A stretch of DNA of 62,746 nucleotides from contig CAYHHH010000009.1 in NCBI GenBank assembly GCA_964356125.1, positions 1-62,746 on the forward strand, written 5' to 3'. Positions 4,532-54,880 of the stretch are shown piece after piece. The stretch comes from an uncultured Bifidobacteriaceae bacterium. Lineage in GTDB: Bacteria; Acidobacteriota; Vicinamibacteria; Vicinamibacterales; JAMQPK01. Under the pieces are notes generated by a model that did no database searches, was not told the DNA's origin, and was given only the letters and a program-made list of their open reading frames with translations. Position 1 is the first letter of the stretch, and the number at the start of each line of letters is the position of its first letter. Both the position numbers and the translations under genes were made by a program.

Positions 4532-4554
4532 CCACCGCGAACGGAGAAGGGCTC

Positions 4555-6940: not shown

Positions 6941-8277
6941 AGAAGGTGCTGCTTGCGGCGGCGTTCGCGGTCATGGCGATTCCGGGCGCCGGTGAAGCGC
7001 GCGTCTGGACCGTCGGCCGCGGCAGCACGGATTTTCCGCTCATCGCTCCCGCAATCGCGCACGCGGAAGACGGCGATGAGATTCGAATCGGACCAGGCGT
7101 CTATCGCGAGGATCTGGTGCTCGCGAAGCGCCTCTCGCTGGTTGGCGTGGGGCGGCCGGTCCTGTTCGGCACGGAGCGCGGCACGGTCATCGACGTGCGC
7201 GCCGATGGCTGCACGATCAGCGGTCTCATCATCGATGGCACCGGGGTGGGCGCCGGTAATCAGATGGACGCGGCCGTCCGCCTGACGTCCAACAACAACA
7301 TCGTCAGCGGCAACGAGATGCGGCGCGTCTTCTATGGGGTCGTCATCGCGGGGGGATCGGGCAACGTCGTCGCCGACAACTCGATCGAAGGGCTGCTCGA
7401 CCTGCCGTTCGGCCGGCGCGGCGATGGCATCTACGTCTATCAGGGCCCACGCAATCACATCCTGCGTAATCGGGTTGTCGGCCAGCGCGACGCCATCTTC
7501 CTGCAGTACGCCCACAACGTGCGCGTCGAGCACAACATCGTCGAGCGCTCGCGATACGGGCTCCACGACATGTTTTCCGACGACACGATCGTGCGTGACA
7601 ACGTGTTTCGCACGTCGCTCGTCGGCGCCAATATCATGAATTCGAAACGCCTGACGCTCGAGCGAAACGAGTTCGCGCACAACCGCGGCATCACCGCCGT
7701 GGGCCTGACCCTTAAGGATTGCGACGGATCGACCGTTTCCGACAACCGGTTTACAGGCAACGCCCGCGGACTGCAGCTCGACGGATCGTCCGGCAATCGA
7801 TTCGTGAAGAACCGGTTTGCGCAGAACGACGTCGCGGTGCGCCTCCTCGCCAGCGCCGAGCGCAACATGTTCTCGGCCAACGAATTCGTGCAGAACTGGA
7901 GCGACGTCGTCGAGAGCGGGCGCGACAGCACGAATGCCTGGAGCGTTGCGGGGGTCGGCAATCGCTGGAGCCGCTACAGCGGTTTCGACTTCGACGGCGA
8001 TGGCGTCGGCGAGTCCGCCCATTCACTGCTCCGCCCGTTCGAGCGCATTGAGGGGGCGAACGAGCTCGCGCGCCTCTATCTGCAGAGTCCCGCGGCTGGC
8101 GCGCTCGATCTGGCTGCTCGCAGCGTGCCTGCCTCAGGCGGTGCATCCATCGACGATCACCCACTGACCGGCGCGCCTCAACGCGGAACGGGCCGCGAAT
8201 GGCTCGTGGCCGCCGCACTCCTGCTCTTTCCACTTCTGCGAGCCGCGCGGCGCATGCGCGCGAAGGTGACGGCATGA
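6937..8277 (+). CDS. nosD: Periplasmic copper-binding beta-helix protein NosD
   Basis: ORF 6598..8277 trimmed to ATG 6937 (MKKVLLAAAFAVMAIPGAGEA signal). Repeated parallel beta-helix turns (NNNIVSGNEM, GNVVADNSIEG, HNIVERS, DNVFRTS, RNEFAHN, DNRFTGN, KNRFAQN). Confidence 0.9.
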   Translation: MKKVLLAAAFAVMAIPGAGEARVWTVGRGSTDFPLIAPAIAHAEDGDEIRIGPGVYREDLVLAKRLSLVGVGRPVLFGTERGTVIDVRADGCTISGLIIDGTGVGAGNQMDAAVRLTSNNNIVSGNEMRRVFYGVVIAGGSGNVVADNSIEGLLDLPFGRRGDGIYVYQGPRNHILRNRVVGQRDAIFLQYAHNVRVEHNIVERSRYGLHDMFSDDTIVRDNVFRTSLVGANIMNSKRLTLERNEFAHNRGITAVGLTLKDCDGSTVSDNRFTGNARGLQLDGSSGNRFVKNRFAQNDVAVRLLASAERNMFSANEFVQNWSDVVESGRDSTNAWSVAGVGNRWSRYSGFDFDGDGVGESAHSLLRPFERIEGANELARLYLQSPAAGALDLAARSVPASGGASIDDHPLTGAPQRGTGREWLVAAALLLFPLLRAARRMRAKVTA

Positions 8278-9260
8278 TCGAGCTGCTTGGACTCAACAAA
8301 ACGTACGGCACGCGCGCCATCCTCTCGAACGCCTCGCTCACCGTCAGAGGCGGCGAGAGCATCGCCCTCATCGGCGCGAACGGCAGCGGCAAGACGACCA
8401 CGCTGCGGTGCGCGATCGGGCTTGCGCGGCCTGCGAGCGGTCGCATTCTGATCGACGGCATCGATATGACGGCCCGCCCATGCGACGCACGCGCGAAGCT
8501 CAGTTACCTGGCGCAGCGCACAGAATTTCCGAGCACGCTGACCGTCCGTGAAATTCTGTCGGTCGTCGCACAGCTTCGCGGCGCGGATGCCGGCACCGTC
8601 GACCGTGAGATTTCTCTGTGCGGTTTAAGCCGGCTGGCGGGACGGACCGTCGGCCAGCTCTCGGGCGGCGAGCGTCAGCGGATTGCCATCGCGGCGCTCT
8701 TTATTCCCGATGTTCTCGCCTATGTGCTCGACGAGCCGACGACCAACCTCGACCCGATTGGGGTGCAGGTCCTCGTCGACCGTCTCGCCGCCGCGAGAGA
8801 CGCTGGGCACGCGGTGTTGTTCACCACACACGCCACCGCGGAGCTTGGCGACCTGGCGACAGCCGTCGCGACGCTGCGCGACGGACAGATTGCCCTGGCT
8901 GCACACGATATCCCGCCGGGCGAGCGCCACCTGTCAATGGCGGTCGACGGCCGAGTCGAATCGTGGGTCGGCGCCGCTCTTCGAGCCGGCGCCCGCCGCG
9001 CGTGGCCTGGCAGCGGCCGTCTCCACGTCGTTGTGTCAGACGGCTCCGTCAGCGCGTTGCTGGGACGGCTGGAATGCGAGGGGGCGCGCGTCACTGATTA
9101 CCGGAGCGAAAGCGCGCTCGCGGCCGCGCTCGAAGGGCTGTACACGGAGGAACATCATGATGAAGTCGCGCGTCCTCACAGCGTCGATCGCTGTGTGGCT
9201 GATGGCGAGTTGTGGCGCGGCGCGGCCTGGGCCCGAGCCGATTCCGCTGGACCGCGCTAA
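8274..9260 (+). CDS. nosF: ABC transporter ATP-binding protein NosF
   Basis: Start ATG 8274 (ATGA overlap with the nosD stop). Walker A GANGSGKTT, signature LSGGERQR, Walker B AYVLDEPT. The reading frame runs 104 nt into nosL. Confidence 0.9.
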   Translation: MIELLGLNKTYGTRAILSNASLTVRGGESIALIGANGSGKTTTLRCAIGLARPASGRILIDGIDMTARPCDARAKLSYLAQRTEFPSTLTVREILSVVAQLRGADAGTVDREISLCGLSRLAGRTVGQLSGGERQRIAIAALFIPDVLAYVLDEPTTNLDPIGVQVLVDRLAAARDAGHAVLFTTHATAELGDLATAVATLRDGQIALAAHDIPPGERHLSMAVDGRVESWVGAALRAGARRAWPGSGRLHVVVSDGSVSALLGRLECEGARVTDYRSESALAAALEGLYTEEHHDEVARPHSVDRCVADGELWRGAAWARADSAGPR

Positions 9261-9588
9261 CTGCGCGCGGTGCGGAATGCTGATCTCGAGCGACGCGAAC
9301 GCCGCGCAGTCGCAGACCGACGGTCAGCCGACGCGGTTCTTCGACGACATCGGATGCCTGGCGGCTGAGCCCGCCGCGCAGGCTGACACCACGCGTCGAT
9401 ACGTGCGCCTCGCATCGGGCGGCTGGGCCACGACCGACGCCGCGTGGTTCGCACGATCGCTCACCGCGAGAACGCCGATGGACTACGGCGTGCTCGCTTT
9501 CGCAACCGCAGATGAGGCGCGAGCCGCCGATCGCGATCGACAGGCGCACCAATGGCCGGCGATCGTCGCGCTCGCGAAATCCCGATGA
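9157..9588 (+). CDS. nosL: Copper chaperone lipoprotein NosL
   Basis: ATG 9157 follows a GGAGG RBS. Lipobox LMASCG. Conserved CARCGM motif and ...FDDIGC... as in NosL. Confidence 0.85.
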   Translation: MMKSRVLTASIAVWLMASCGAARPGPEPIPLDRANCARCGMLISSDANAAQSQTDGQPTRFFDDIGCLAAEPAAQADTTRRYVRLASGGWATTDAAWFARSLTARTPMDYGVLAFATADEARAADRDRQAHQWPAIVALAKSR

Positions 9589-10409
9589 CCAGCCCCTTGA
9601 TGACGATCGCACGCATGGAATTCACGGCCACAGGACGCGTCTGGTGGATTCGCCTGCTGACCGTCGCGTACGCGCTGCTGAGCGTCGCGATGGCATACGC
9701 ATCGGGCGTCATCGGCGAGACAGAACGCGGTGAAGCGTTCGCGCGGCTCACCGTCGCCGTGCTTCCGCTCGCGCTGACCCTCGTGCCGTTGGCTGCACTG
9801 CTGATCGGTGTGACCGGCGCCGCGGCCGACGATGCGACCGGCTTCCTGTTGTCGCAACCGGTGTCGCGTCTGCAACACCTGGCCGGCACGTGGCTCGGCC
9901 AGGCCGCCGCCCTGTCCTTCTCAGTGATTGCGGGTTTCGGAACGGGCGGGGTGATCGTGTCGCTGATTTCCCGCGCAAGCGACTTTGGCAGGTTTGGCGT
10001 CCTCGTTGCGGCGTGCCTCCTCGCGGCCCTCGCCTTTCTCTCGATTGCCACGCTAATCGTCGCGGCCGTGCGTCACCGAAGCGCCGCGTTGGGCCTCGCC
10101 GCGTTCATCTGGTTCGTCGCGGTCATCCTGTACGACGCAGCGATGCTGTCGATTGCGGTCTGGGCGACAGGGGTGAACGGCGCCCGCGTGTTGTTCGTGT
10201 CGGTGTTCGGCAACGTGGTGGATCTCGTGCGCGTGCCGACTCTGCTGCTGGCAGGGACGCCGCACGTGCTGGGCGCCGCGGGTGAGAGCTGGCTGCGCGC
10301 GCTTGGTGGTCCAGAGCCGGCCGCGCTGCTGTCAGTCTCTGTCCTGGCGGCGTGGATCCTGGCTCCTCTCGCACTGGCCCTGAAAATTCATTCGGTCCGG
10401 GACGTATAA
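9585..10409 (+). CDS. nosY: ABC-2 type permease NosY
   Basis: ATG 9585 (ATGA overlap with the nosL stop). Six hydrophobic segments. Context with nosD/F/L. Confidence 0.85.
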   Translation: MTSPLMTIARMEFTATGRVWWIRLLTVAYALLSVAMAYASGVIGETERGEAFARLTVAVLPLALTLVPLAALLIGVTGAAADDATGFLLSQPVSRLQHLAGTWLGQAAALSFSVIAGFGTGGVIVSLISRASDFGRFGVLVAACLLAALAFLSIATLIVAAVRHRSAALGLAAFIWFVAVILYDAAMLSIAVWATGVNGARVLFVSVFGNVVDLVRVPTLLLAGTPHVLGAAGESWLRALGGPEPAALLSVSVLAAWILAPLALALKIHSVRDV

Positions 10410-19097: not shown

Positions 19098-19274
19098 ACC
19101 AGCTACCGGCTACGAGCCAAGCCCTACTCGGTCGCGCGAAATTCAGCCGCGAGTGTTTCTACAACCGCCGTCGGCGTCGGGCCATCGTGCACGACGACGC
19201 GGTAGCGGAGCGTCAGCGGCGTGCCGGTCTTGATTGTGTACGGCCCGACCGCAGCGATGTTCGGGTTCAGCATC
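19098..19274. repeat. Copy A of a roughly 170-bp duplicated segment (3' end of the DUF6807 gene plus about 25 bp downstream); copy B lies at 57031..57190
   Basis: Hand alignment gives about 85 percent nucleotide identity. The encoded C-terminus AVVETLAAEFRATE-stop is identical in both copies. Confidence 0.8.
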
Positions 19275-20134
19275 CACAGTCCTCGCGAGCCGTGCCAGGT
19301 GGTCGGAGGGTTGGACGGATGGTCGAGCACCGCGGCTCCGACAGTCTTCCCGTTCGTGAGGGTGATGACGTAGCCGTACCACGGCGCTCCAGGCCAATTC
19401 GTTTCCGGCGCTGAGTAGTGCGCATCGGGAAACGCCACGGTGCCGCCGGGCCACGTGTAATGCGAGTCCCCGTCCTTGCGCGCCTGAAAGTTGAATCCCG
19501 AGAAGCCCTGCTTGTTCAGCTGGTAATCGACGAGCACCGCCAGCCTGAACACGACATCGATGACATACACGCCGTCCCGCTCGGCGACCGTCGTCGTCGT
19601 CGTTTCCTCGGCGAACTTGCGTTTGTTGACGCCCCAGTCGTTCTGAACTTCGATGACGGCCCTGGCCGCATCGGCTGACTTCAGCGTGACGTCGCGGGTC
19701 TCGATCGTGCGGCCATCGCGCGGCGCGTACACGCCCCATCCCCAGAAGTCGGCCTTGGTGACATTCCAGCCGAACAACGGACTGGTCGGCCCCTTGCGCG
19801 TAATCGGCTGGCGGAACTCGGAGTCGTGCCACGCGATGTACATGCCGCGGTGGTGCGGATGATCGTCGGGCGCGAGCGCGCTGACCCGTTCTCCCGACGG
19901 CGTGTTGATCGGATGAAAGCACGCCGCGTTCGGTCCCGTCAGCGGTACGCCCGCCGGTTTGCTCGTCACGTACTCCAGCACGACACGGCCGTCAGGCGTT
20001 TTGAGCTGCACGCCGTTGGCGACAGGCGTCAGGGTGTAGGCGCCCGACGTGCGCGCCTGACCCCAAGCCGGCCGTTCGCACAACGCAAACGCGAATGCAC
20101 AGAGTGCGAGCGTGATCGCAAGTGTCGTTTTCAT
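19124..20134 (-). CDS. PmoA-family / DUF6807 domain protein (secreted)
   Basis: Signal peptide MKTTLAITLALCAFAFA. Motifs FHPINTPSGE...DHPHHRGMYIAWH and ...HPSNP..TWH... are typical of the DUF6807 (PmoA-like) family. ATGA overlap with the upstream propeller gene. Confidence 0.75.
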   Translation of the reverse strand: MKTTLAITLALCAFAFALCERPAWGQARTSGAYTLTPVANGVQLKTPDGRVVLEYVTSKPAGVPLTGPNAACFHPINTPSGERVSALAPDDHPHHRGMYIAWHDSEFRQPITRKGPTSPLFGWNVTKADFWGWGVYAPRDGRTIETRDVTLKSADAARAVIEVQNDWGVNKRKFAEETTTTTVAERDGVYVIDVVFRLAVLVDYQLNKQGFSGFNFQARKDGDSHYTWPGGTVAFPDAHYSAPETNWPGAPWYGYVITLTNGKTVGAAVLDHPSNPPTTWHGSRGLWMLNPNIAAVGPYTIKTGTPLTLRYRVVVHDGPTPTAVVETLAAEFRATE

Positions 20135-22077
20135 CGTTTCACGTTGTTCCAGAAGATGAACGTGCCGAATCGCGTCGCGGTGACGACGTCGAGCCGCCCG
20201 TCCTTGTTCAAATCGACCGGGTAGACGTCCGATCCCGTGCCTGAACGATTGTGAATGAGCTCAGGAACGAACTCCGCGCCGCCCGGGGCTTTTGGATTGC
20301 GCACCGTCTTGAACCAGTAGAGGACGGCCGGGCCGTACGGATCGGGATCGAGATAGGTGTCGCGGTGAGACCAGTAGCGCTTGCCCACGACGAAGTCGGT
20401 AATGCCATCGCCGTCCACATCGCCGAAGTTCGCGCCGTGGGGCTGCGAAAACACGACGCCGCCGGCATTTTTCGTCGAGGGATCGTCCATGATCATGTGC
20501 TGCACGAACGAAATCACGCCCTTCCCGTCGCGCTTCTGCTCGTACCACGCCATGCCCCAGCCATGCGCCGCGAGCGTGGTGACGACATCGTTCAGTTTGT
20601 CGCCGTTCACATCGTAAACGGCCATGACGCTGCCCCCGAAGCCGCGCTTGTAGCGGCCGAAGGCCTGCGGATGATACGTCCACGTTTGACTTTCGACTTT
20701 CGACTGTGGACTTTCGACTTTCGACGGTTCCGGCTGCTCCCACCAGCCATACGGGTTGACGATGTCCGCACGGCCGTCTCCGTTGATATCGCCACCACCC
20801 ACGCCGTGCGCGGTCACGTACCCTCGCTCCGACACGTTGTGGATTTTCCATGTCGCGGTCGGATTGGCCGGATCCGGTTTCGCCCACCGCATCTGGCCTT
20901 CGGCGCCGTACACCAATTCTGGTTTCCCGTCGCCGTCGATGTCGTAGATGACGCCGATTTCGGTCTGATACGCCGGCACGACGAGATGCTTGTCCCAGCG
21001 GCGCGACTCCCCTTTCGGATTCACATAGAGCGTGCAGCCGGCGCCGCCCGAGAAGCTGCAGTTCAGCGCGTCGCCCCAGCCATCGCCGGTGAAGTCGCTG
21101 ACGAACTGCATCCAGGCGTCGGTGGTGTACATGTCGGAGGGGTTGCTCGTGAGCTGTAGATAGATTTCGCCGCGCCTCGTGTAGTCCGGGCCGTAAAACA
21201 CGTGCGGCCCCGAGATGACATCGAGCACGTTGTCGTGATTGACATCTGTCGCGCCAGCACCCCAGGAGTAATAGAAATCGCTGAGCCGCTGCATCCTGAA
21301 GCTGTCCGACACTTTTTCGGCGGGCCTCACCTGAATCGCCAGGTCTTTGTACGCGACATCCTTGAACCGCACCTCACCGCTGCCACCGGCATACAGCGCA
21401 ATCGGCCCGAAATTTCCGGCCTCGAGATCGGCGACGCCGCCGCCGCGCTCGCCGCCGTTGTTCAGCAGCGGCCGAATGATGTTGGCATCGAGATAGAGCT
21501 CGATCGTGTTCCACTCTCCGGCTTTCAGACTCGTGTCGGGCGGCATGATCGGCAGCGTCACGGCCGGTCCGGTACCGCGCGCCCCCGCACCGCCCGCGCG
21601 CGCCGGCGGATTCGGGTCTGGTGGCGGAGCGATGCGCATCTGCCCGCCGCCGGCCCTCAACGGTTCTCGCGTGAGGATTCGACCCTGCGCGTCCAGGACC
21701 GCGCGGTAGGACGTGACGTCGCCATCGGTCAGCGCGACGTAAATGCCCTTCATGCCGGTCGAGGTCTTCTCGGCTCGAAGCAGGACGCCGGTGGAGCATC
21801 CTTGCGCGCACTTGAACGACGTGAAGAAGGCGACATCCTGCAGGGACCGGTCGAGGACAAGCCACCCGCCGGCCGCCTGCGCCGGGGTTCCGACCAGTTC
21901 GCCGTTGTCGATACGCCATGCCGCCGATCCCAACGTATGCCAGCCCGTCAGGGCCGAACCCTTCAAGGTCGCGTCGGGATGAAACGACGGACCGGCGGTG
22001 CGTACGGGGATGACGAAGACGCCGACGAGCAGGAAAATCGCGAGCACCGCCGCCGTCCGTATGTGTCTGTCAGGCAT
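20131..22077 (-). CDS. Secreted DUF1080 (3-keto-disaccharide hydrolase-like jelly roll) + FG-GAP/VCBS beta-propeller protein, paralog 1
   Basis: N-terminal domain: L.GW...G.A.W....GE.VG......GWL.....Y.D..F...F.C...C.TGVLLRAE...GEWN.IE......I...LN......GPIALY.GG.GEV.FKDVAYK.L. The C-terminal part has repeated D.NGDG..D/DGDG.PE FG-GAP calcium-loop motifs. Confidence 0.8.
   Translation of the reverse strand: MPDRHIRTAAVLAIFLLVGVFVIPVRTAGPSFHPDATLKGSALTGWHTLGSAAWRIDNGELVGTPAQAAGGWLVLDRSLQDVAFFTSFKCAQGCSTGVLLRAEKTSTGMKGIYVALTDGDVTSYRAVLDAQGRILTREPLRAGGGQMRIAPPPDPNPPARAGGAGARGTGPAVTLPIMPPDTSLKAGEWNTIELYLDANIIRPLLNNGGERGGGVADLEAGNFGPIALYAGGSGEVRFKDVAYKDLAIQVRPAEKVSDSFRMQRLSDFYYSWGAGATDVNHDNVLDVISGPHVFYGPDYTRRGEIYLQLTSNPSDMYTTDAWMQFVSDFTGDGWGDALNCSFSGGAGCTLYVNPKGESRRWDKHLVVPAYQTEIGVIYDIDGDGKPELVYGAEGQMRWAKPDPANPTATWKIHNVSERGYVTAHGVGGGDINGDGRADIVNPYGWWEQPEPSKVESPQSKVESQTWTYHPQAFGRYKRGFGGSVMAVYDVNGDKLNDVVTTLAAHGWGMAWYEQKRDGKGVISFVQHMIMDDPSTKNAGGVVFSQPHGANFGDVDGDGITDFVVGKRYWSHRDTYLDPDPYGPAVLYWFKTVRNPKAPGGAEFVPELIHNRSGTGSDVYPVDLNKDGRLDVVTATRFGTFIFWNNVKR
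20688..20725. repeat. Heptanucleotide tandem repeat inside paralog 1: (GACTTTC)2 GACTGTG (GACTTTC)2 GAC on the plus strand
   Basis: Counted directly from the sequence. Encodes PSKVESPQSKVES in a propeller loop. Confidence 0.9.
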
Positions 22078-25199: not shown

Positions 25200-25984
25200 A
25201 GGATCGAATTCCGTACGAGCATGCGGAAAGACGGATGGCGATGCGTCTCGCGCGACGCGCCGGGCTGAATGCACACGACCCTCGCCGTCGGATGCACGCC
25301 GACCCACGCCACTGTCGCGTCGCTTCCCGCGTGCGCGGTCTGGAGGAGCGGCGTGATGTTCGGCGACTGCCACATCCCCTTGTAGGTTTCTTCGTTCGCG
25401 ATGCTGAAGGGGCCGATGCTTCTGAGAACAGGGTGTGTGCCAACGGGACGGACATCCAGCCTTGCCGCCGTCGATGGCACTGACTTCTTCATGCCGGGCA
25501 GATCGTTGAGAACGAAAAGCCCACCAGTGACTTCCTGATACCACCACGGCCAGTCCTGGTTGTCGCCGAGCGAGTGATGGAGCAGGACGAACCCTCTACC
25601 CGCCTCGACCGCCTGTCGCGCGAGCGCGCGCGTCGCGTCGGGCCAATTCATCTGATCGTTGAGCACCAGAACGTCATACCCGGGGTGAGGCCTGCCGCCG
25701 CTCGGCTCCCATGGATAATCGCGAGGCTCGATCCGCTCCGTGCCGCCGCCGACGGCGCCCCGTCCGGTCTGCGGCGCCGGTACCGTCTGGCGCGCGGGGA
25801 GTTGCGCAGACTGAGGCACAAGCGCCGCAAAGTTTGCCGGCTGGTCAATGGGCCAAATCTCCATGCCGAAAAACATCGGATCCAGGAACATGTCCTGAAG
25901 CGATGGCGGATATGGCTTGCCTCCGGTGGTGAGCTGAACCCAGACCTCGGTCTTCGGAAATCGTTGCACCGCGTCAGGCGCCAT
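25175..25984 (-). CDS. ThuA-like (trehalose utilisation / class I amidotransferase-fold) protein, no signal peptide
   Basis: YDVLVLNDQ...GRGFVLLHHSLG...WPWW...VTGG and HPVLRSIGPF...ETY...VCIQPG..R....P.FR.LV.N.ILW are paralogous to the next gene. 11-nt overlap with that gene. Confidence 0.75.
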   Translation of the reverse strand: MAPDAVQRFPKTEVWVQLTTGGKPYPPSLQDMFLDPMFFGMEIWPIDQPANFAALVPQSAQLPARQTVPAPQTGRGAVGGGTERIEPRDYPWEPSGGRPHPGYDVLVLNDQMNWPDATRALARQAVEAGRGFVLLHHSLGDNQDWPWWYQEVTGGLFVLNDLPGMKKSVPSTAARLDVRPVGTHPVLRSIGPFSIANEETYKGMWQSPNITPLLQTAHAGSDATVAWVGVHPTARVVCIQPGASRETHRHPSFRMLVRNSILWCAGRLI

Positions 25985-26756
25985 TGAGTCTCCGTCCCGC
26001 CCACAGGATCATCCTGTGAACGATGTTGCGGTAATTCGGGTCTTGACAGACCGACCGCGTATGCCCCGGCTGAAGGCACACGACGCGTGCGTCCTGGTAC
26101 GGTCCGACCCATCCCACCGCAGGGTTATTGAAGGACGGATCGTCCGACTCGAGCAGCACGGTGGCCTTCGGCGAAATCCACATGTTCGGGAACGTCTCAT
26201 CCCAGGGAAGCTGGAACGGCTCGATGCCCTGAACGATCGGATGCGTTCCGACCGGCTTCAGCGTCTGAATCGGGAATTGTTTCAGCCGCTCTTGTGTCTT
26301 CATGCCCGGAACGCCGGGGTTGTACAGATAGCAGCCGATGACTTCCTCGCTCCACCACGGCCACTCGTTGTTGTTGGTCCCAACGGCGTGATGCAGGACG
26401 ACGACCCCCTTGCCAGCCCGAAGGTGCTTGACCATGTTGTCGCGCTCACCCTGCGGCCACCCTCCGGTGATCCAGTCATTCGTGACGATGACGTCGGGAG
26501 CGTGTGGTCCGACCACACTGTCGAACGCGTTGGGGTGAGGAAGCACAACAGTGTCCATGTCGCCGAACATGGGACTTTCGAACATGGCGTACATCTGAAG
26601 CGGCGAGGTGTGGCCTCCTCCCGTGAACTGCACGCGCAGAGGCGGCCCACGTCGGGCGCGTTGAGCTGTCTGAGCGGCTGCATCCGCAAACACCTGCGGC
26701 ACGGCCGCAGCGGCGAGCACGGAAGCAAACAAATGTCGGCGCGAAAACGTGGGCAC
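25974..26756 (-). CDS. ThuA-like protein with Tat-type signal (SRRHLF)
   Basis: MPTFSRRHLFASVLAAAAVPQVFA. ThuA motifs: FTGGGH, DVIVTND, GKGVVVLHHAVG, HPIVQGIEPF, LQPGH. Confidence 0.8.
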   Translation of the reverse strand: MPTFSRRHLFASVLAAAAVPQVFADAAAQTAQRARRGPPLRVQFTGGGHTSPLQMYAMFESPMFGDMDTVVLPHPNAFDSVVGPHAPDVIVTNDWITGGWPQGERDNMVKHLRAGKGVVVLHHAVGTNNNEWPWWSEEVIGCYLYNPGVPGMKTQERLKQFPIQTLKPVGTHPIVQGIEPFQLPWDETFPNMWISPKATVLLESDDPSFNNPAVGWVGPYQDARVVCLQPGHTRSVCQDPNYRNIVHRMILWAGRRLNGA

Positions 26757-26795: not shown

Positions 26796-28544
26796 TCATC
26801 CGTTCGCCGCGTGGAGCCCGGCGAGCCGTCCGAACAACGCCGATTTCGCCAATCCGTGCTGAGATATCCCGCTCGCACATTCGCCTGCCGCATACAGACC
26901 CGGAATGGGCTGGCCGTGCAGATCTATCACCTGAGCATTCGTGTTGATTCGCAAACCCGCCATCACGTCGTGCAGGGCAGGCGTGGCCCAGGCGGCATAA
27001 AACGGCGGCGTGTTGATCTTGTGGGTGGGCGTCGGCTTGTCGAAGTCGAGGTCGACCCCTGCATCCACAAAGGCGTTGTAGCGTTCGACCGTTGCTCGCA
27101 GCGCATCGCCTGGCATCGGCCGCCACTGGTACGGGCAACCGATGATCGTGCGGGCCAGTTCCTCGATGGTGTCGGCGACGAAGAAGAAACCGCCGGCCGG
27201 ATCGACGTGCGGCGGCTTGGTAATCCAGCCCTGGCGCGTGACCGCGGCCGCATCGAAGATGGCCCAGATCGGTCCGCCGCCGTTCAGCTTCTTCGGATCC
27301 CCGGTCCATTGCAGCGCCGCGTCGATGTGCGCACGGCGCCCGAGCGACCCCAACGGCTTGCCGCGAAGCGTCTCTTCATAGAAACGCCGCCCGGTTTCCT
27401 TCACCAGGATCGCGTTCTGCCAGTCGACGATTCCGAGTCCGGTGGTGCCCTGGCGGAAGAACGCGGGGCTATCCGGCGGCATCAGTGGACCGCCCAATGT
27501 CAGCTTCGTCCCCAGCGAAGAGCCGGCGCGATCGATCTGCCGATCGCCCAGGTTTACCTGATTGCACGTCGTCCAGAGCGACGCCCCGATCGCCATCGCC
27601 GCGATCTCGCCGTCGGCATCCTTGGTCGTGTACGCGTGGCCCAGCACCTGGTACTCTTCGGTCAGCCGAGGATCGTAGATGCGGCGGAAGTTGACGTTCG
27701 CCGAAGGACCACCGGCCGCGACGACCACGCCCTTACGCGCACGGATGTTCACGGTTCGGCCGGTCGGATTATTCCACCGATCGACTTCGGCGGCCGTAAT
27801 GCCGAGCACCCGTCCGGAGCGGGCGCTCTCGCGGTGAATCTGCGTCATCCTGTGGAGCAGCAGGATTTTGATCCCCTTCGCGCGCGCGGCTCTTTCGAGC
27901 GGCCGTATCAGCCCCGAGCCGGTCCCGTAACCGGGTCCGTTCGGGATGATCAGCTCTGCCGGATTGGCCCAGCCTTTCACGACCGTCTGCCGCGGCACGT
28001 TCGGATCGCCCGGCCCACGAATGCCGCCCAATCGCGCCCATTCGACGCCGTTGCTCTCCAGAAACTCGAACGTAGCGACGGCGTTGTCTGCGAACGCCCG
28101 CACAATTTCGCGGTCGGCGTGCTTTGCGAGCGGATGCCCCTCGGTTCCGAAGAGCGCCGCATCGACTGGTGCGTGCCCCTCTGAGCCCGTCCAATCACGA
28201 AAGAACTGGTCCGGCGAATCGTGGACTCCCGCCGCCTGCTGCAGCCGATTTCCGCAACCCAACTGGACGCTGCCGCCACTGAGAATCGCTCGGCCGCCGA
28301 CATCCCAGTTCTTCTCGACCACAATCACCGACGCGCCGCGATCGCGCGCCGCGATCGCGGCGGGCATGCCGGCAGCCCCCGAACCAATCACGACCACCTC
28401 GTAGTCGAGGTCCCATCTGGTTGGCGTCGGGGCCTGCCCCGCCTCTGCTTCGTGCGAGCCGAGACCCGCCAGAGCGGCGGCGCCTCCGATGCCGGCTGCG
28501 GTCTCCTTGAGGAAGGCCCGTCTGCCCGTTTTCGTTTTGCCCAT
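26796..28544 (-). CDS. Tat-exported FAD-dependent oxidoreductase (FAD_binding_2 / KstD-fumarate reductase flavoprotein-like), paralog A
   Basis: Tat signal GRRAFLKETAAGIGGAAALAG. Rossmann motif VVVIGSGAAGMPAAIAARDRGASVIVVEK. C-terminal GLYAAGECASG flavin motif. About 70 percent identical by eye to 38737..40533. Confidence 0.85.
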   Translation of the reverse strand: MGKTKTGRRAFLKETAAGIGGAAALAGLGSHEAEAGQAPTPTRWDLDYEVVVIGSGAAGMPAAIAARDRGASVIVVEKNWDVGGRAILSGGSVQLGCGNRLQQAAGVHDSPDQFFRDWTGSEGHAPVDAALFGTEGHPLAKHADREIVRAFADNAVATFEFLESNGVEWARLGGIRGPGDPNVPRQTVVKGWANPAELIIPNGPGYGTGSGLIRPLERAARAKGIKILLLHRMTQIHRESARSGRVLGITAAEVDRWNNPTGRTVNIRARKGVVVAAGGPSANVNFRRIYDPRLTEEYQVLGHAYTTKDADGEIAAMAIGASLWTTCNQVNLGDRQIDRAGSSLGTKLTLGGPLMPPDSPAFFRQGTTGLGIVDWQNAILVKETGRRFYEETLRGKPLGSLGRRAHIDAALQWTGDPKKLNGGGPIWAIFDAAAVTRQGWITKPPHVDPAGGFFFVADTIEELARTIIGCPYQWRPMPGDALRATVERYNAFVDAGVDLDFDKPTPTHKINTPPFYAAWATPALHDVMAGLRINTNAQVIDLHGQPIPGLYAAGECASGISQHGLAKSALFGRLAGLHAANG

Positions 28545-28554
28545 GGTGCTGGTC

Positions 28555-30498
28555 CTACTTCCGAGGTTGGCCCCAGAAGATGAAGGTGCCGTACCGGGTG
28601 GCGGTCAGAATGTCCATGCGGCCGTCCGTGTTCAGATCGATCGGATACACGTCCGATCCGGCGCCCGACCGGTTGTGGATCAGCTCGGGGACAAATTCTG
28701 CGCCTCCCGGCGCCTTTGGATTTCGCACGGTGCGGTACGAATACAGCACCGCCTGGCCGTACGGATCCGGATCGCTGTAGTTGTCGAGATGCGACCAATA
28801 GCGTTTGCCGACAATGAAATCGAGCACGCCGTCGCCGTCCACATCCTCCACATTCGTGCCATGCGGTTGCGAGAACGCGACGCCGCCCGCATTCTTCGTC
28901 GAGAAATCGTCCATGATCATGTGCCGCACGAACGAGATCGTTCCCTGCGCGTCTCGCTTCTGCTCGAACCACGCCATTCCCCACCCGTGCGGGTTCAGCA
29001 CCGTCACCACGTCGTTCAGCTTGTCGCCGTTCACGTCGTAGACGGCCATCACGCTGCCGCCCATGATGTTCCAGCCATAGCGGCCGAACACCTGCGGATG
29101 ATACGTCCACGTTTGACTGTCGACTGTCGACTGTCGACTGTCGACTGTCGACTGGTCCGGCTGCTCCCACCAGCCGTACGGATTGACGATGTCCACGCGG
29201 CCGTCTCCGTTGATGTCGCCCACGCCGACGCCGTGCGCTGTCGAGAGGCCACGTTCCGACACGTTGTGAACGATCCACGTTCCAGTTGGATTCGCGGGAT
29301 CCGGCTCCGCGTACCGCATCTGCCCTTCAGCGCCGTACACGAGCTCGGGTTGTCGGTCACCGTCGATGTCGCGAAGCACGCCGATTTCGGTCTGATACGC
29401 CGGCACGACAAGATGCGTGTCCCATCGGCGCGGTTCGCCTCTCGGATTGACGTACAAATGGCAGCCGGGATTGCCCGAGAAGCTGCAGTTCAGCGCGTCG
29501 GCCCAGCCGTCGCCGGTGAAATCGCCGACGAATTGCATCCAGTTGTCTCGCGTGAATTCGGTGGACGGGTTGGTCGTGAGTTGCAGGTAAATCTCGCTGC
29601 GCCTGGTGTAGTCCGGCCCGTAGAACACGTGCGGTCCCGAGATCACGTCGGGCACGTTGTCGTGGTTGACGTCGGCGGCGCCCGCTCCCCAGGCGTAATA
29701 GAAGTCGCTCAACCGCTGCATCCTGAAGTTGCTGGACACTTTTTCGACCGGCCGCACCTGGATGCTCAGGTTTTTGTACGCGACGTCTTTGAATCGCACG
29801 TCACCCGTGCCGCCGACGTACAACGCGAGCGGACCGAAATTGCCCGCGTCGGGATCCGCGACGCCTCCCGCCCGTGCGCCGCCATCATTCAGATGGGCCC
29901 GAACGATATTCGCGTCGATGTGAATCTCGATCCGGTTCCACGCTCCGGCTTTCAGGCTGGCGTCAGGCGGCACGACAGGTGGTGTCACTCCGGCACCTCC
30001 CTGGCTGCCGCCGGCCGCGGCGGGCGCCGGCGCATGAGGGTCGAGCGGCGGTGCGATGCGCATCGATCCGCCGCCAGGCCTCAACACCTCACGCGTGAGA
30101 ATCTGTCCCTGCGTGTCCAGTGTCACGCGATGCGAAGCCATTTCTCCATCGGTAAGCGCGATGTAAATCCCCTTCAGTCCTGTCGGCGTCTTTTCCGCGC
30201 GAAGCAGCACACCGGTCTTGCATCCCGGCGCGCACAGAAACGATGCGTAGAAGCCCACGTCCTGATACGACCGATCGAGCAGCAGCCAGCCGCCGCCCGG
30301 CTGCTGCGGAGTGCCCACGATCTCGCCGTTTTCAGCGCGCCATGTCGCGTTCCCAACCGTGCGCCATCCGGTCAATGTTGAGCCCTTGAACGTGACATCG
30401 GGGTGGAACGACGGACCGATTCCTCGCACAGACGGTTGCGCCGCGAGCCACACAGCCGCGGCGGTCAGGATCGCGAGATGCGTCTTTGACATCGCCAC
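28555..30498 (-). CDS. Secreted DUF1080 + FG-GAP/VCBS beta-propeller protein, paralog 2
   Basis: Collinear with 20131..22077 and highly similar to it, including long identical nucleotide runs around 29097-29114. Confidence 0.8.
   Translation of the reverse strand: MAMSKTHLAILTAAAVWLAAQPSVRGIGPSFHPDVTFKGSTLTGWRTVGNATWRAENGEIVGTPQQPGGGWLLLDRSYQDVGFYASFLCAPGCKTGVLLRAEKTPTGLKGIYIALTDGEMASHRVTLDTQGQILTREVLRPGGGSMRIAPPLDPHAPAPAAAGGSQGGAGVTPPVVPPDASLKAGAWNRIEIHIDANIVRAHLNDGGARAGGVADPDAGNFGPLALYVGGTGDVRFKDVAYKNLSIQVRPVEKVSSNFRMQRLSDFYYAWGAGAADVNHDNVPDVISGPHVFYGPDYTRRSEIYLQLTTNPSTEFTRDNWMQFVGDFTGDGWADALNCSFSGNPGCHLYVNPRGEPRRWDTHLVVPAYQTEIGVLRDIDGDRQPELVYGAEGQMRYAEPDPANPTGTWIVHNVSERGLSTAHGVGVGDINGDGRVDIVNPYGWWEQPDQSTVDSRQSTVDSQTWTYHPQVFGRYGWNIMGGSVMAVYDVNGDKLNDVVTVLNPHGWGMAWFEQKRDAQGTISFVRHMIMDDFSTKNAGGVAFSQPHGTNVEDVDGDGVLDFIVGKRYWSHLDNYSDPDPYGQAVLYSYRTVRNPKAPGGAEFVPELIHNRSGAGSDVYPIDLNTDGRMDILTATRYGTFIFWGQPRK
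29115..29156. repeat. Heptanucleotide tandem repeat inside paralog 2: (GACTGTC)5 GACTGGT on the plus strand
   Basis: Counted directly from the sequence. Encodes QSTVDSRQSTVDSQ. The unit contains a SalI-type GTCGAC palindrome at every junction. Confidence 0.9.
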
Positions 30499-30522: not shown

Positions 30523-31434
30523 TCACATCATGAATCGCGCGCTGGGATCTTCCTCGGGGACCGCAACGCCCACGAGCCGAAGGGTCACGTCGTTGAAGAC
30601 GTCGACGGTCGTGGGAGGCGCCTCGTACCCCGCATGCCATACCCTGATCTCGTACGTGCCTTTCGGCATCGACAATTCAGCCACTCCGCACGCATCGGTC
30701 AACGAACGGAACGGACCGAGCCGGATGTGCGCGTGCTCGATCGGCTTCTCTGTCTCGTGCTCGATCAGGGTGATCGTGAGCCGATGATCGGGCGATCTGA
30801 CGGCGGCAAAGCTGAAACACGCAACCGCGTCATCGTGAGGCAGCTCGATGTCTGCCGGTGCGAATCTGGCGGACCACGATACGATGCCTTCGTTCGAAGG
30901 AGCGGGCAACTCGACCTCGGTCCAGTACAGGGCAGTGGTCCCTTCCCAGGGAACATCGCCGAGCTGCCCGCTGCCGACGAGCGTCCCCGCATCGTCCATG
31001 ACCTCGACCTTCGCGCCCTTCAACCCGCGGGATGCTGAGCTCTTCGCCCCGATCTTGATCGTGAACCGCCCGCCGATCACGACGGGCGACGGGACGCTCC
31101 AAATCGCCAGACTGCTCATGAGAGGCCTGGTCGTGAACGTGACTGGCAGTGAGACTTCTTCATGGAGGACGCCGCCAATCTCCTGGCGCGGGAACAGAAC
31201 GACCCACGACCAGGAGCCAGCTTTGTCGGGTGCGGCGATCGCAAATTCCGCGGTTTCAGATGCGGCCAACATCTCTTCGCCAGACATGAGTCTGATCGCT
31301 GCGCCGCTCAGGTCGCAGCCACACGCACACGATCGTCTCACCTTCAGCGTCATGTCGGACCGCACGGGCACATCGGACGCGACGGCCTCATCCATCTCCA
31401 ACGCTACCCGATGCGCGAAACCCTGGTCGGTCAT
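30523..31434 (-). CDS. Hypothetical protein with Ig-like/carboxypeptidase-regulatory-like C-terminal domain, no signal peptide
   Basis: 303 aa. The C-terminal 80 aa (RLTITLIEHETEKPIEHAHIRLGPFRSLTDACGVAELSMPKGTYEIRVWHAGY) fit the CarboxypepD_reg pattern. The N-terminus has a CACGC motif. No family recognised for the rest. Confidence 0.5.
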   Translation of the reverse strand: MTDQGFAHRVALEMDEAVASDVPVRSDMTLKVRRSCACGCDLSGAAIRLMSGEEMLAASETAEFAIAAPDKAGSWSWVVLFPRQEIGGVLHEEVSLPVTFTTRPLMSSLAIWSVPSPVVIGGRFTIKIGAKSSASRGLKGAKVEVMDDAGTLVGSGQLGDVPWEGTTALYWTEVELPAPSNEGIVSWSARFAPADIELPHDDAVACFSFAAVRSPDHRLTITLIEHETEKPIEHAHIRLGPFRSLTDACGVAELSMPKGTYEIRVWHAGYEAPPTTVDVFNDVTLRLVGVAVPEEDPSARFMM

Positions 31435-31458: not shown

Positions 31459-34400
31459 TCAGAACAAGAAACGCCCACCGAAGCGGATGACGCGCTCGGT
31501 CAGCGGGAGGATCTCCGTGACGCGGCCGAAGTTGCCGTCGCCGAACGTCCCGTTCGGGTTGGCATAGTGCGCGCGGTTCAGCAGATTGAAGAAGTCCGCC
31601 CTCACCTCGGCATGCCGCGACCCGAAGCGGACAATCTTGACGAGCGACGCATCAATGTTGACATACGCCGGTCCGGTCAGCAGCGATCGCCGTTGCACGT
31701 TACCCCACGTGCCCGCAGCAGGCGCCGAGAAGACCGACGTGTCGAACCACAGCGCGTTCGAGCCGATGCCGCCGAGCACTTCGGGCGTGCCGCTGACGTT
31801 GGGCGTCTGGGTATTGCCCGGGGCGCGCAGGCTTGCCCCACTCGCGGTGAAGTCGATGGGCCTTCCGGAGATCGCCGAGAACAGCCCCGTGACCTGCCAG
31901 TCGCCCAGCACCCTGCTGATGACGCCTTCTTTGAGCCACGAACCCTGCGGGCCCCAAGGAAGCAGATACACGAAACTACTCGTCACGCTGTGCGTGGAAT
32001 CGAAGATCGGCCGGTCCCAGCTCCGCTCGAAGTCGGCCGGCGTGGCAATGGAGGGTCCGCTGTCCCCGGTGGCGTAGCTGTAAGCCCGCCCCAGCGTGTA
32101 CGAGTTGGTCACCAGCAGACCTCGGGTCATCCGACGGTCGACCTTGACCTGCAGGGAATGGTAGGTGGACTTGACCGGCACGGTGCTCGACGTGCTGGCC
32201 GACCGGCCGAACTTGGCGAACAGCGGCCGGCCGGCGTTGTCCGCTCCCAGCGTGTAGCCCGCATTGAGGTCGAGGCCGGCGCGGATGTCCTGGCCTCTGT
32301 TGCCAACATAGGCAACCTCGCCCGTGAACGCCCCAGGCAGCGCCCGCTGATAGGCCACGTTCCACGAGTGCAGCCGCCCCTCGCGGTAGTCGGTCTCCAC
32401 CACGGAGAAGCCTTGCTGATTGAAGGCCGCCGCCGGCACGACGCCGCTGTCGGGAATCGCTGCGACGTTCGGGGGCGGCATCCCGGCGGCCATCGACCCG
32501 GCCGCTGCAAAACTGTTCGGCGGGTTGATCTGGTTGTTCTGTTTCACCGGGAAATTCAACCCGTAGGAGCTGGGCCACGGCAGCGAGCTGACGCCATAGC
32601 CGGCGCGGATGACGTTCGTCTCGCTGAGACGCCAGGACACGCCGGTGCGGGGGCTGAAGTTCCGCCAATGGCTCTTCACACCCAGATTCTGCGGGATGTC
32701 GCCGTAGCCGGCAACGCGGAGCGTGTTGTTGGTCGGGTCGTAGCTCGCCATGCCGCCGCGATCGTTGAGCCCGACGAGCGGCGTGTAGTACTCGTGGCGC
32801 AGACCGACATCGATCGTGAGGTCCGGGCGCACCTGCCACTTGTCGTGGACGAATGAGAAGACGCCCCAGTGGCGCCCGCCTGGGTCGGCGTCGGTGATCA
32901 GGTCTCTGCCAATACTCTGCGGCGCGTCGAGCAGGAAGGCCGCCAGCGCATTGGCGTAGCCGTTCTGCGCGCGCGTATCGCCGGGAATGGCCGTCGTCGT
33001 GCCGCGGAAGCGGAAGATGCCGCGCGGCCCGCCGTTGTCCTGCACCTGCAGCAGGAAGAACCGGTTGTGGCGCAGTTCGCCTCCGATCTTCAGGGTGTGG
33101 TTGCCAAGAAGTTTCGTGGCAGTGGTGGCCGTGGTCCACGTTTGCTCGGCGCGGTCCCACGGCAGCGAATTCGAGAAGCCGATGAGCGTCCCGCTGTACC
33201 CGCTCACGTCCATCGTGGCGATGCCGCTCGTAAACTCGTTCAGGTTCACGCCCCGAATGCCGACCTCCTCTGACGTCTTCAGCCCGTGGGCCTCCGATAT
33301 CGCTTCGTTGTGGTGCCAGGTCCTGCCGATGCGCACTTCCTGAATCAGCGTGGACGACCACACCCGGTTGTAGTTGGCGGCCGCGTTATAGGTCGGGTTG
33401 GTGCCGAATCCTGCAAACGGCTTGATGCCGCCCCAGATGCCGAATGTCGCCGGGTCGTACGTCTCGGCGTTCTGTTGGCTGTAGCGAACCGACAGGTGGT
33501 CGCTCGCTCCCGCCTGGTAGGTGAGCTTGATGTCGAACTGGTTCGTGCGCTTTTCGCGCACGTACTGTTTTTCGTAATTGGTCCCGCCCAACGGCGCGCC
33601 CGCGATGTTCGGCGTCGGGATATTGGACAGGAGCCGCTGCGTGATGGGGCTGAGGCGGCTCGCCGGGATCTGATTGTTCGGGAACGGCGTCCGCCCCGTG
33701 CCGTCGGGATTGCCGGTCGCCGGATCGTAAATGATCGTGGGGGCCGCACTGAAGTCGCCGGTCCGAAACGCGAGCTCCGGCAGGTGCGCCTGCGTGAGGC
33801 GCCCGCTGTCGTCAACGGTCCGCACGTAGTCACCGAAGAAGAACAGTTTATTCCGCTTGATCGGCCCGCCGAGGGTAAAGCCGGTCTGCATGTACTTGGT
33901 CTCGGCAGGCGGCAGCGCAGAGAAGGGATTCCGGGCGATCGTCGCCTCGGTGTTCCCGAAGCTGAACAGCGAGCCACTGAGGTCGTTCGTCCCTGACTTC
34001 AGCGTCACATTCATCACGGCGCCACCGGCCCGCCCGAACTCCGCGTCGTAGTTGCTGGTGCTGACGGCGACGGTTTCAATCGCTTCGGCCGACGGAATCA
34101 TCATCGTCAGCGCACCGCTGTTGTCGCTGTTCGCCGTGCCTTCGAGCTGCACGTTGTTGGCCTGCCGCGACTGCCCGTTGATGTTGCTCGACAGGCTGTC
34201 CTGCGAGTTGTAGAACTCCGAATGCGGGCGGAACGGGCGCGAGGCGCCCGGCACCGTGATCAGCATGCCCTGGAAGTTCCGATTGAACCCAAGCGGCATC
34301 TGAGTCAGTTGCGTGCTATCGATGATGCGCCCGGTATCGGCGCGATCGGTCTGCATCATGGGCGCCTCGCCCGTGACCAGCACCGACTCGCTGAGCTCGC

Positions 34401-34764
34401 CGATCGCCAGGGCGATCTCCACGCGAATCGTGGTGTTGACATTCACCGCCACGCCTTCGCGAACGAACTTACTGAATCCTACGAGCTCCCCCTCGACGCG
34501 GTACACGCCGGGCTCGAGGTTGGTAAACGTGTAGTTGCCGGCCTCGTTGGAGACCGTCGACCGCCTGATATTCGTGCGCACTTCGATCGCGGTGATCGTC
34601 GCACCGGGCACCGCAGCGCCGCTCTCGTCCCTGACATTCCCGACCAGCGCGCCAACCGCGCCCTGAGCGGCGGCGTGGGCAGCGATGAAAAGGATCCCAA
34701 GTACAGCGAGTGCGATGACGGTCCGCACATCACCATACGCACCAGGCCGATGTGGATGGGTCAT
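31459..34764 (-). CDS. TonB-dependent receptor with N-terminal carboxypeptidase-regulatory-like domain
   Basis: ATG 34764 follows GGGAGGA. Signal peptide. GNVRDESGAAVPGATITAIE...EAGNYTFTNLEPGVYRVEGEL, then plug and 22-strand-barrel-like sequence ending in ...RFGGRFLF. Confidence 0.85.
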   Translation of the reverse strand: MTHPHRPGAYGDVRTVIALAVLGILFIAAHAAAQGAVGALVGNVRDESGAAVPGATITAIEVRTNIRRSTVSNEAGNYTFTNLEPGVYRVEGELVGFSKFVREGVAVNVNTTIRVEIALAIGELSESVLVTGEAPMMQTDRADTGRIIDSTQLTQMPLGFNRNFQGMLITVPGASRPFRPHSEFYNSQDSLSSNINGQSRQANNVQLEGTANSDNSGALTMMIPSAEAIETVAVSTSNYDAEFGRAGGAVMNVTLKSGTNDLSGSLFSFGNTEATIARNPFSALPPAETKYMQTGFTLGGPIKRNKLFFFGDYVRTVDDSGRLTQAHLPELAFRTGDFSAAPTIIYDPATGNPDGTGRTPFPNNQIPASRLSPITQRLLSNIPTPNIAGAPLGGTNYEKQYVREKRTNQFDIKLTYQAGASDHLSVRYSQQNAETYDPATFGIWGGIKPFAGFGTNPTYNAAANYNRVWSSTLIQEVRIGRTWHHNEAISEAHGLKTSEEVGIRGVNLNEFTSGIATMDVSGYSGTLIGFSNSLPWDRAEQTWTTATTATKLLGNHTLKIGGELRHNRFFLLQVQDNGGPRGIFRFRGTTTAIPGDTRAQNGYANALAAFLLDAPQSIGRDLITDADPGGRHWGVFSFVHDKWQVRPDLTIDVGLRHEYYTPLVGLNDRGGMASYDPTNNTLRVAGYGDIPQNLGVKSHWRNFSPRTGVSWRLSETNVIRAGYGVSSLPWPSSYGLNFPVKQNNQINPPNSFAAAGSMAAGMPPPNVAAIPDSGVVPAAAFNQQGFSVVETDYREGRLHSWNVAYQRALPGAFTGEVAYVGNRGQDIRAGLDLNAGYTLGADNAGRPLFAKFGRSASTSSTVPVKSTYHSLQVKVDRRMTRGLLVTNSYTLGRAYSYATGDSGPSIATPADFERSWDRPIFDSTHSVTSSFVYLLPWGPQGSWLKEGVISRVLGDWQVTGLFSAISGRPIDFTASGASLRAPGNTQTPNVSGTPEVLGGIGSNALWFDTSVFSAPAAGTWGNVQRRSLLTGPAYVNIDASLVKIVRFGSRHAEVRADFFNLLNRAHYANPNGTFGDGNFGRVTEILPLTERVIRFGGRFLF

Positions 34765-34803
34765 CAAATCCTCCCTTATAGAGCCATTCAGTTAATCGGC
34801 CGT

Positions 34804-52471: not shown

Positions 52472-52502
52472 AGGCGGCGCGAGTCCGATCGCGGCCTCAC
52501 TT

Positions 52503-54825: not shown

Positions 54826-54880
54826 TCGGGCGCCCACGATCTTGTACACGGCGCGTCGATCTGATGTATGTTGACTCGAG

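Follow-up and report, generated by a model that had tools for sequence, protein, structure and literature searches.

A heptanucleotide array in a propeller loop of a DUF1080/FG-GAP protein is probably a tolerated in-frame 7/21-nt repeat acquired in a short conversion patch

The subject of this work is an array of heptanucleotide units inside a protein-coding gene of an uncultured bacterium, on a 62,746-nt stretch of DNA (contig CAYHHH010000009.1, analysed over its whole length and called the window here) that has a G+C content of 64.5% and whose named relatives are members of the Acidobacteriota (Bryobacteraceae, Acidiferrales, Acidobacteriaceae and Vicinamibacteraceae). The gene, paralog 2, encodes a predicted exported protein composed of a DUF1080 domain and an FG-GAP propeller, and a second gene of the same architecture, paralog 1, is located 8.4 kb from it. 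We find it probable that the array in paralog 2 is a tolerated and mutationally driven repeat that varies the length of a propeller loop in frame, is organised as a 7-nt unit nested within a 21-nt block, was acquired in a patch of paralog-1-type DNA and does not serve as a dedicated switch.

On the forward strand, positions 29115-29149 consist of five perfect GACTGTC units and are followed, to 29156, by the single imperfect unit GACTGGT. Tandem Repeats Finder places the tract at 29115-29154 with a period of 7, 5.7 copies, 100% matches and a score of 80. The tract is antisense to the 647-codon open reading frame (ORF) of paralog 2 and its in-frame translation is QSTVDSRQSTVDSQ; as at a contingency locus, a unit whose period of 7 is not a multiple of three lies inside a reading frame. 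The sequence GTCGAC begins at 29119, 29126, 29133, 29140 and 29147, the five unit junctions of the tract. The two-unit pattern GAMAGTCGAMAGTC, searched with at most one mismatch, has eight matches in the window, all of them in the tracts of the two paralogs, where 0.11 would be expected, and none of 100 shuffles produced eight; the tract is more than a chance feature. An earlier note on this DNA had described the five units with one imperfect unit, their frame and peptide, the palindrome at each junction, and an array with a different unit at the homologous position of paralog 1. All of this was confirmed, the junction palindrome in 5 of 5 cases and the paralog 1 tract, of the GAAAGTC type, at 20688-20725. 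The public run data used below are Logan contigs (k=31), which end inside a pure array of about 40 nt and lose rare variants; the exact number of units in the paralog 2 array comes from the assembly and cannot be re-derived from such contigs.

The array came into paralog 2 recently, when a gene of the paralog 1 type contributed a conversion patch some 60-100 nt long. Paralog 2 is closest to P0002 (86% amino-acid identity), P0003 and P0004; like paralog 2, P0002 and P0004 have FAD_binding_2 and ThuA genes as neighbours, and P0003 and P0004 have the gene for a 303-residue protein upstream. No array is present in these three syntenic orthologues, the loops of which read PAASMDKHLWAFH, PAG...ASSMWNFH and PAAKAASSMWNFH. 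When nucleotide identity between paralog 2 and P0002 is followed in a sliding window it stands at 95-99% over much of the gene and at 0.40-0.58 at the loop, and the identity of the paralog 2 loop to P0006 and P0010 is 0.91-0.94. The conversion test was based on 140 sites that separate the three orthologues of paralog 2 from five paralog-1-type genes. Paralog 2 is of the orthologue type nearly throughout. Four successive sites, at codons 448, 457, 463 and 466, are instead of the donor type, and a run of this length was obtained in 0.4% of permutations (p = 0.004). A donor-type block thus stands between recipient-type sites, in the manner of gene conversion, and the recipient-type sites at codons 435 and 470 limit the patch to 29092-29193 at most.

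Contigs from two groundwater runs (X2 and X3) bear on the same question. Their flanks are 99.7% identical to the window, with 1-2 substitutions outside 29101-29158, and inside that interval they have 8 substitutions and 24 nt fewer, which is the length of the array-free loop. Presence or absence of the array is therefore polymorphic between near-identical populations. Together, the array-free orthologues, the array-free groundwater contigs and the donor-type run show that the array was copied in by a conversion patch, and they speak against the view, put forward in the earlier note, that the tract has been maintained or re-expanded independently in two paralogs. Some homogenisation within the array is still needed beside conversion, because the five units of paralog 2 are identical, and the differing units of the two paralogs show that such within-array homogenisation takes place. 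In the array-bearing P0006 a patch of the paralog 1 type is set in a gene that otherwise belongs to the PPAGSNKE clade, and P0259, from the same cluster, is array-free; patch transfer has probably happened more than once. Along the rest of the gene, identity between paralog 2 and P0002 (contig L145) is mosaic, at 95-99% in codons 60-140, 280-320 and 467-647 and 65-85% in codons 150-250 and 340-440, which points to further recombination besides the loop patch.

The length of the loop differs widely among relatives and does so in whole codons. In the majority of 120 homologues the loop is short and of the PPAGSKQE type, and in some it contains a 7-residue motif in one, two or three periods. The array has three units in P0017 (AACAGTC GAAAGTC GAAAGTC), six in P0006 (AACAGTC, three copies of GACAGTC, GACGGTC, GAAAGTC) and nine, with a block structure, in P0010, and these arrays run into AAACGTGG, as do those of both window paralogs. 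Clusters of proteins that are at least 90% identical contain members with nine units (P0010, P0244, P0247, P0251), six (P0242, P0245, P0249) and three (P0252), members with no array (P0246 and P0255, and P0259 in the cluster of P0006) and members with another heptamer-like loop, PSTIDDGRSW (P0243, P0253). Inserts of 0, 7, 14 and 21 residues thus occur as whole-codon blocks in close relatives, the behaviour of an in-frame coding minisatellite, and every cluster allele is in frame.

A higher-order period of 21 nt can be seen in several of these genes. The loop of P0244 and P0247 is QSRVESP-QSKVESP-QSKVES, with the ...VESPQ junction recurring each 7 residues, and P0096, from a distant clade (L146:4351-4412), has 3.0 copies of CCATCGT CCATCGT CGATCGT at 100% with a 21-nt period and encodes PSSIVDR three times; the longer period is also present in P0010, and the array of paralog 1 is made of two 21-nt blocks. 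It is invisible in paralog 2 because the five units there are identical. Since variant units recur every 21 nt, the length changes that survive are gains and losses of 21 nt, or seven codons, and the heptamer reads as a sub-period of a seven-codon block repeat. Comparison across the clades also marks this propeller loop as a recurrent site of 7/21-nt repeats built from different units. Loops of the STIDDGRS or DDGRSTMDD type were found at the same site in P0080, P0243, P0253, P0036, P0072 and P0089.

The protein in which the repeat lies belongs with the DUF1080 + FG-GAP/VCBS propeller proteins, both by curated Pfam cut-offs (FG-GAP_3, 84.8 bits with a cut-off of 26.9; 3keto-disac_hyd, 59.4 and 26.8; FG-GAP, 53.5 and 22.1) and by fold. 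An AlphaFold model built with 60 homologues has a predicted local distance difference test score (pLDDT) of 85.7 and a predicted template modelling score (pTM) of 0.84; Foldseek matched its DUF1080 part to 3-keto-glycoside hydratases and CBM66 jelly rolls and its propeller to CRTAC1, ITFG2, PVL lectin and integrin alpha, which are seven-blade FG-GAP structures. The database protein (P0001) begins at the ATG at 30492, and the hydrophobic helix predicted at its N-terminus resembles a signal peptide. The tract peptide comes after GDINGDGRVDIVNPYGWWEQP. In the model, the calcium-loop-like DINGDG joins strands 1 and 2 of a blade in which GWWE (440-443) forms strand 3 and WTYH (463-466) strand 4, and the 18 residues between strands 3 and 4 hold the tract peptide and have the lowest confidence of the propeller (mean pLDDT 51 for residues 451-460, below 50 for 454-458). 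Going by strand order and the usual propeller topology, this 3-4 loop would lie at the outer rim and share a face with the 1-2 loops. A second loop that varies by insertion or deletion is found near residue ~515 of P0001, where an insert of 11-12 residues (for example LPGIAAPAAEAG) stands between EQKRD.KG and ISFEQH in some, but not all, members of a cluster that is at least 90% identical (P0243, P0245, P0249, P0253).

These observations are best explained by a nested coding repeat in which three heptamers would make one 21-nt block and hence seven codons. The repeat would encode a hydrophilic, disordered spacer with a 7-residue period (QSTVDSR / SKVESPQ) in the loop between blade strands 3 and 4 of an exported DUF1080 + FG-GAP protein. 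Its length may change by replication slippage or by unequal pairing within the array, and selection would remove changes of one or two units because these would truncate or scramble the last three blades; the loop would tolerate the insert owing to its place at the outer rim or lower face of that domain. The five identical units of paralog 2, in an array recently copied into the gene by a short conversion patch, would reflect recent within-array homogenisation, perhaps helped by the self-complementarity of GACAGTC.

The tract might instead be a contingency locus of the NeuO type, at which slips of one or two heptamers toggle the gene, multiples of three are ON and the exported protein is lost reversibly; we regard this as distinctly unlikely. 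Its attraction is plain enough, given that the unit length is not a multiple of three and the tract is within the coding sequence, that five pure units in paralog 2 suggest recent slippage, that a change of -7 or +14 nt leads to a stop at codon 480 or 487 and one of +7 or -14 nt to read-through without a stop, and that the AAGACTC repeats in the coding region of neuO, ON at multiples of three, provide a precedent (PMC13001214). Yet the array-bearing alleles, about 18 in consensus assemblies and partly retrieved as proteins, are all in frame at the array, with 3, 6 or 9 units or with remnants that keep the frame, compared with 65.6% of 64 genomes OFF at neuO, a 5' coding heptanucleotide tract of 3-53 units with ±1-unit variants within a culture (PMC13001214). 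An OFF fraction of two thirds as in neuO would make 0 of ~18 extremely unlikely; a low OFF fraction stays compatible with it. A query with the N-terminal 464 residues, which places short and full proteins on an equal footing, likewise found no allele truncated at the array: it returned six shortened proteins, five of which reach the loop and are array-free while the sixth breaks upstream of the loop. Two proteins of 176 residues with the same start methionine (P0248 and P0254) were considered as C-terminal halves of frameshifted alleles and rejected, the contig of P0248 beginning inside the loop. Three contigs of a distant clade, from one study and ~95% identical to each other (L149:2711-2860, L150:2780-2930 and L151:2798-2950), do carry arrays of the NNNAGTC type (for example AGTCCAG) in this loop, the length of which is 2 mod 3 in all three; their genes are split into several ORFs by many other 1-nt indels and could be decaying pseudogenes or noisy long-read consensus, a long-read origin being our guess from their 'contig_N' names. 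Apart from these contigs, no out-of-frame OFF alleles were seen beside in-frame ones. Nor is the tract long, pure and early in the gene, for its 5-6 units, compared with 13-38 at hmw promoters (PMC2651432) and commonly ~20 in neuO (PMC13001214), occupy codons ~448-461 of 647, 70% along the gene. The arrays of relatives are interrupted by point changes while keeping their length (P0007, P0012, P0013), the opposite of the purity of a contingency locus, and the 21-nt recurrence of variant units points in the same direction, as do the unchanged sequence of the paralog 1 array in four runs from two studies and the metabolic context of the operon. The proposal in the earlier note that such tracts underlie phase-variable surface proteins is therefore unsupported here rather than refuted, with ~18 alleles in frame, a tract far into the gene and an operon that looks like a periplasmic sugar pathway.

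Selection may have acted on the loop in another way. Adaptive diversification of an exposed loop, with period number or sequence selected to tune the protein or to vary an epitope (through partner spacing, or evasion of proteases, phages or predators), is unlikely in our judgement. It would explain the spread of the patch between gene backgrounds, of which at least two have gained it, and it is in keeping with loop lengths that differ among proteins at least 90% identical, with near-identical strains that differ in the presence of the array and with other heptamer arrays in the same loop of distant clades (CCATCGT in P0096, NNNAGTC in L149-L151 and the STIDDGRS type). The number of NeuO repeats reportedly affects the enzyme. 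The neuO repeats are known to be translated (PMC13001214). On the other hand, the loop peptide is of low complexity and predicted to be disordered, most family members have a loop of 5-7 residues, the protein looks like a component of a periplasmic pathway and not a surface antigen, and neutral turnover in a tolerant loop predicts the same pattern equally. It is very improbable that the array acts at the level of nucleic acid, either by folding into a DNA or mRNA hairpin or cruciform that would control replication, transcription or translation, or by offering a group of GTCGAC recognition sites. The hairpin or cruciform potential recorded in the earlier note was found in the paralog 2 tract, where the two DNA strands fold at -14.6 and -13.3 kcal/mol (z -3.6 and -3.8 against shuffles), but not in the GAAAGTC array of paralog 1 (z +0.1 to +0.2), and because orthologue arrays mix GAAAGTC, AACAGTC and GACGGTC the self-complementarity is not conserved; a hairpin may help slippage in the paralog 2 copy. 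Five GTCGAC sites do fall within 34 nt of the tract, but the window as a whole contains 50, these five included, where 44 +/- 6.7 would be expected; this gives no sign that GTCGAC is avoided or enriched as a restriction site, and that idea was rejected. Least credible of all is that the assembler created the array or its number of units. Logan contigs do break off within it, and L006, L019 and L241 end or begin in the loop, but on each side contigs of the flanks from several DNA and RNA runs reach 25-30 nt into pure array, such arrays stand at this codon in independent assemblies of other studies too, and the full-length frame is intact, so the number of units must be a multiple of three.

Several observations weigh against a tolerated, patch-acquired repeat and keep our confidence in it from being high. 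The donor is a candidate only by type: of 42 array positions, 6 differ between paralog 2 and the present paralog 1 (25 nt of the 3' flank are the same in both), and the closest array, with 2 differences, is that of P0006, which is from another sample. The presence of the array patch in at least two gene backgrounds could mean that it is favoured rather than tolerated, and five identical units, unlike the interrupted arrays of relatives, suggest that single-unit slippage is still active. The allele counts come from assembled consensus sequences and were mostly retrieved as proteins, a procedure that under-samples frameshifted alleles and whose bias the N-terminal query reduces in part. The placement of the loop on the propeller depends on strand order and pLDDT. 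A bolder combination of ideas, to which we attach little credence, is a dual-mode contingency element of a free-living soil or freshwater acidobacterium, in which single-heptamer slips would switch off an exported sugar-pathway protein or, by read-through, disturb the downstream FAD oxidoreductase and ThuA genes, steps of 21 nt would tune the loop, and a conversion cassette of ~60-100 nt would carry the element from one paralogous operon to another. If true, it would extend hypermutable switching of the NeuO kind from pathogens and phages to environmental nutrient-acquisition operons, and if reads showed ±1-unit variants the tract would rank as a candidate contingency locus, a rare thing in an uncultured free-living bacterium.

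Table 1. Positions of the array, the conversion patch, the two paralogs and neighbouring genes in the window
Feature	Position	Strand	Description
Heptanucleotide array, paralog 2	29115..29156	minus	Coding strand ACCAGTC + 5x GACAGTC; encodes QSTVDSRQSTVDSQ; ORF codons ~448-461
Minimal gene-conversion patch	29101..29160	minus	Codons 447-466; paralog-1-type DNA, array with immediate flanks (CCGGAC ... CAAACGTGGACGTAT)
Paralog 2 gene	28555..30498	minus	Signal-peptide-like N-terminal helix + DUF1080/3-keto-disaccharide-hydrolase jelly roll + seven-blade FG-GAP/VCBS propeller
Paralog 1 gene	20131..22077	minus	Architecture as paralog 2, 74% amino-acid identity; belongs to the gene type that donated the patch
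Paralog 1 array	20688..20725	minus	AACCGTC GAAAGTC GAAAGTC CACAGTC GAAAGTC GAAAGTC = two 21-nt blocks; encodes PSKVESPQSKVESQ
DUF6807 gene	19124..20134	minus	Overlaps the paralog 1 stop codon; conserved partner of paralog-1-type genes
FAD_binding_2 oxidoreductase	26796..28544	minus	Downstream of paralog 2; conserved partner of paralog-2-type genes
ThuA	25974..26756	minus	Downstream of paralog 2; conserved partner of paralog-2-type genes
303-aa protein	30523..31434	minus	Upstream of paralog 2
Outer-membrane beta-barrel, 1102 aa, CarboxypepD_reg domain	31459..34767	minus	Upstream of paralog 2

The neighbourhoods of the two paralogs (Table 1), one with DUF6807 and the other with FAD_binding_2 and ThuA, are kept in other assemblies and separate two orthogroups. 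To judge from its gene content, the context of paralog 2 appears to be a periplasmic sugar-processing or nutrient-uptake operon with no obvious surface antigen. Contigs from metatranscriptome runs match parts of paralog 2 at 99% identity or more. The gene for the outer-membrane barrel contains a tandem repeat of its own at 34128-34180, with a period of 24 nt, 2.1 copies and 79% matches.

Further observations concern paralog 1 and arrays like its own. Soil runs yielded short contigs and two divergent homologues that are in frame (-18 nt). A soil contig from JGI (L006:1-60), with a paralog-1-like gene that is 79% identical, reads WWESPQSKVESQTW; relative to paralog 1 an in-frame deletion of 24 nt takes out QPEPSKVE and the first units, and as the junction is ~40 nt from the contig end it may be an effect of assembly. 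In two soil metagenomes (runs X23 and X24) the k-mer depth is 370-800 over the GACTTTC array (20692-20724) and 10-30 in its flanks, from which it follows that arrays of the GACTTTC unit are very abundant in soil communities. The source metagenomes contain several further contigs with 34-41-nt matches to the array of either paralog. Two contigs from other studies (L003 and L143) have segments that are 86-97% identical to 6744-10306 and 52439-58031 of the window in a different arrangement; they probably represent genomes of the same genus that are rearranged around the paralog 1 operon.

Arrays of this kind are widespread. A scan for (GAMAGTC)3 in one genome per species listed at least 120 loci, among them loci in Bacteroidota, Acidobacteriota (many), Chloroflexota, Cyanobacteria, Planctomycetota and Verrucomicrobiota; the loci listed lie in long ORFs and between genes, have up to 31 units and occur several times in some metagenome-assembled genomes (MAGs). 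By tblastn, no orthologue of the paralog 2 gene is among the loci listed. A scan of metagenome DNA with the strict pattern GTCGAMAGTCAAACGTGG gave two orthologous contigs, both cut at the loop, and a protein search with a 96-residue loop profile gave short fragments only. In viral contigs the GACNGTC-type unit was found at 39 loci and two scrambled units of the same composition at 30 and 20; we accordingly rejected the idea that GACNGTC is a special or expansion-prone unit. The statement in the earlier note that such perfect microsatellites are rare in GC-rich soil bacteria finds no support in these counts, many of the listed loci being acidobacterial and scrambled heptamers being of similar frequency, or in published surveys in which heptamers are the most abundant long simple repeats (PMC4679880, PMC4692102). 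Those surveys, where they cite Mrazek 2007, also give long repeats as more frequent in large, GC-rich genomes of non-pathogens (PMC4679880, PMC4692102). Among the loci listed (contigs L023-L142) are many copies in several MAGs, namely Hydrococcus sp. Prado102 (at least 11 loci), Bacteroidales RUG14423, Acidobacteriota GB_EKS_MAG_00015 and Chloroflexi NC_groundwater_1442, and one 8-kb stretch, L126 (for example 3152-6140), has four sense-orientation arrays inside long ORFs, each encoding VESRKSKVES.

Our findings have implications beyond this gene. A unit of frameshifting length can persist in a folded protein as a 21-nt block repeat in a tolerant loop, and very short conversion patches between diverged paralogs or strains can create presence/absence and length polymorphism in genes that are otherwise near-identical. 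For genome scans it follows that finding a perfect non-triplet microsatellite within a gene does not on its own argue for phase variation, and that paralogs which resemble each other there may do so through conversion and not parallel evolution.

Among known systems, neuO of E. coli K1 (prophage CUS-3) resembles the paralog 2 array in being a coding heptamer repeat that is translated in three phases into a 7-residue-periodic peptide and gives a full-length product at multiples of three (PMC13001214). It differs in that its tract is at the 5' end and has 3-53 units, often ~20, whereas the array described here lies at codon ~450 of 647, has 3-9 units among the alleles, shows the 21-nt recurrence and had no out-of-frame allele among those seen. 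In Haemophilus influenzae, too, heptamers are tied to one gene family, that of the paralogous hmw1A and hmw2A, and one mid-ORF tract, (AATTTTG)14, is on record (PMC2651432). The hmw tracts, however, have 13-38 units that alter promoter spacing or are frameshifted, and they belong to adhesins of a host-adapted pathogen, while ours is short, in frame and part of a pathway protein in a free-living bacterium. The long simple sequence repeats of 5-11 nt and dispersed heptamers of cyanobacteria, of Beggiatoaceae (TAACTGA) and of Xanthomonas (GGGAATC) share with GAMAGTC the occurrence of one unit at many loci, in several phyla (PMC4679880, PMC4692102). Most arrays of those families lie between genes and have been discussed as regulatory; the array in paralog 2 is coding, inherited with a gene family and, as far as the sequences indicate, exchanged by homologous patches, and within the 62.7-kb window the GAMAGTC unit is confined to the two paralogs. 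In-frame coding minisatellites, or variable-number tandem repeats, vary the length of exported and surface proteins. The array is like them in its whole-codon copy changes, in the differences between close strains, in the frame that is kept and in the hydrophilic, disordered character of the predicted spacer, and it is unlike them in that its block is made of three heptamers with a latent frameshifting sub-period and occupies a short loop within a folded propeller blade instead of a stalk or linker. The paralog 2 array is thus a further example of elements already known, a coding minisatellite and a heptamer simple repeat in one.

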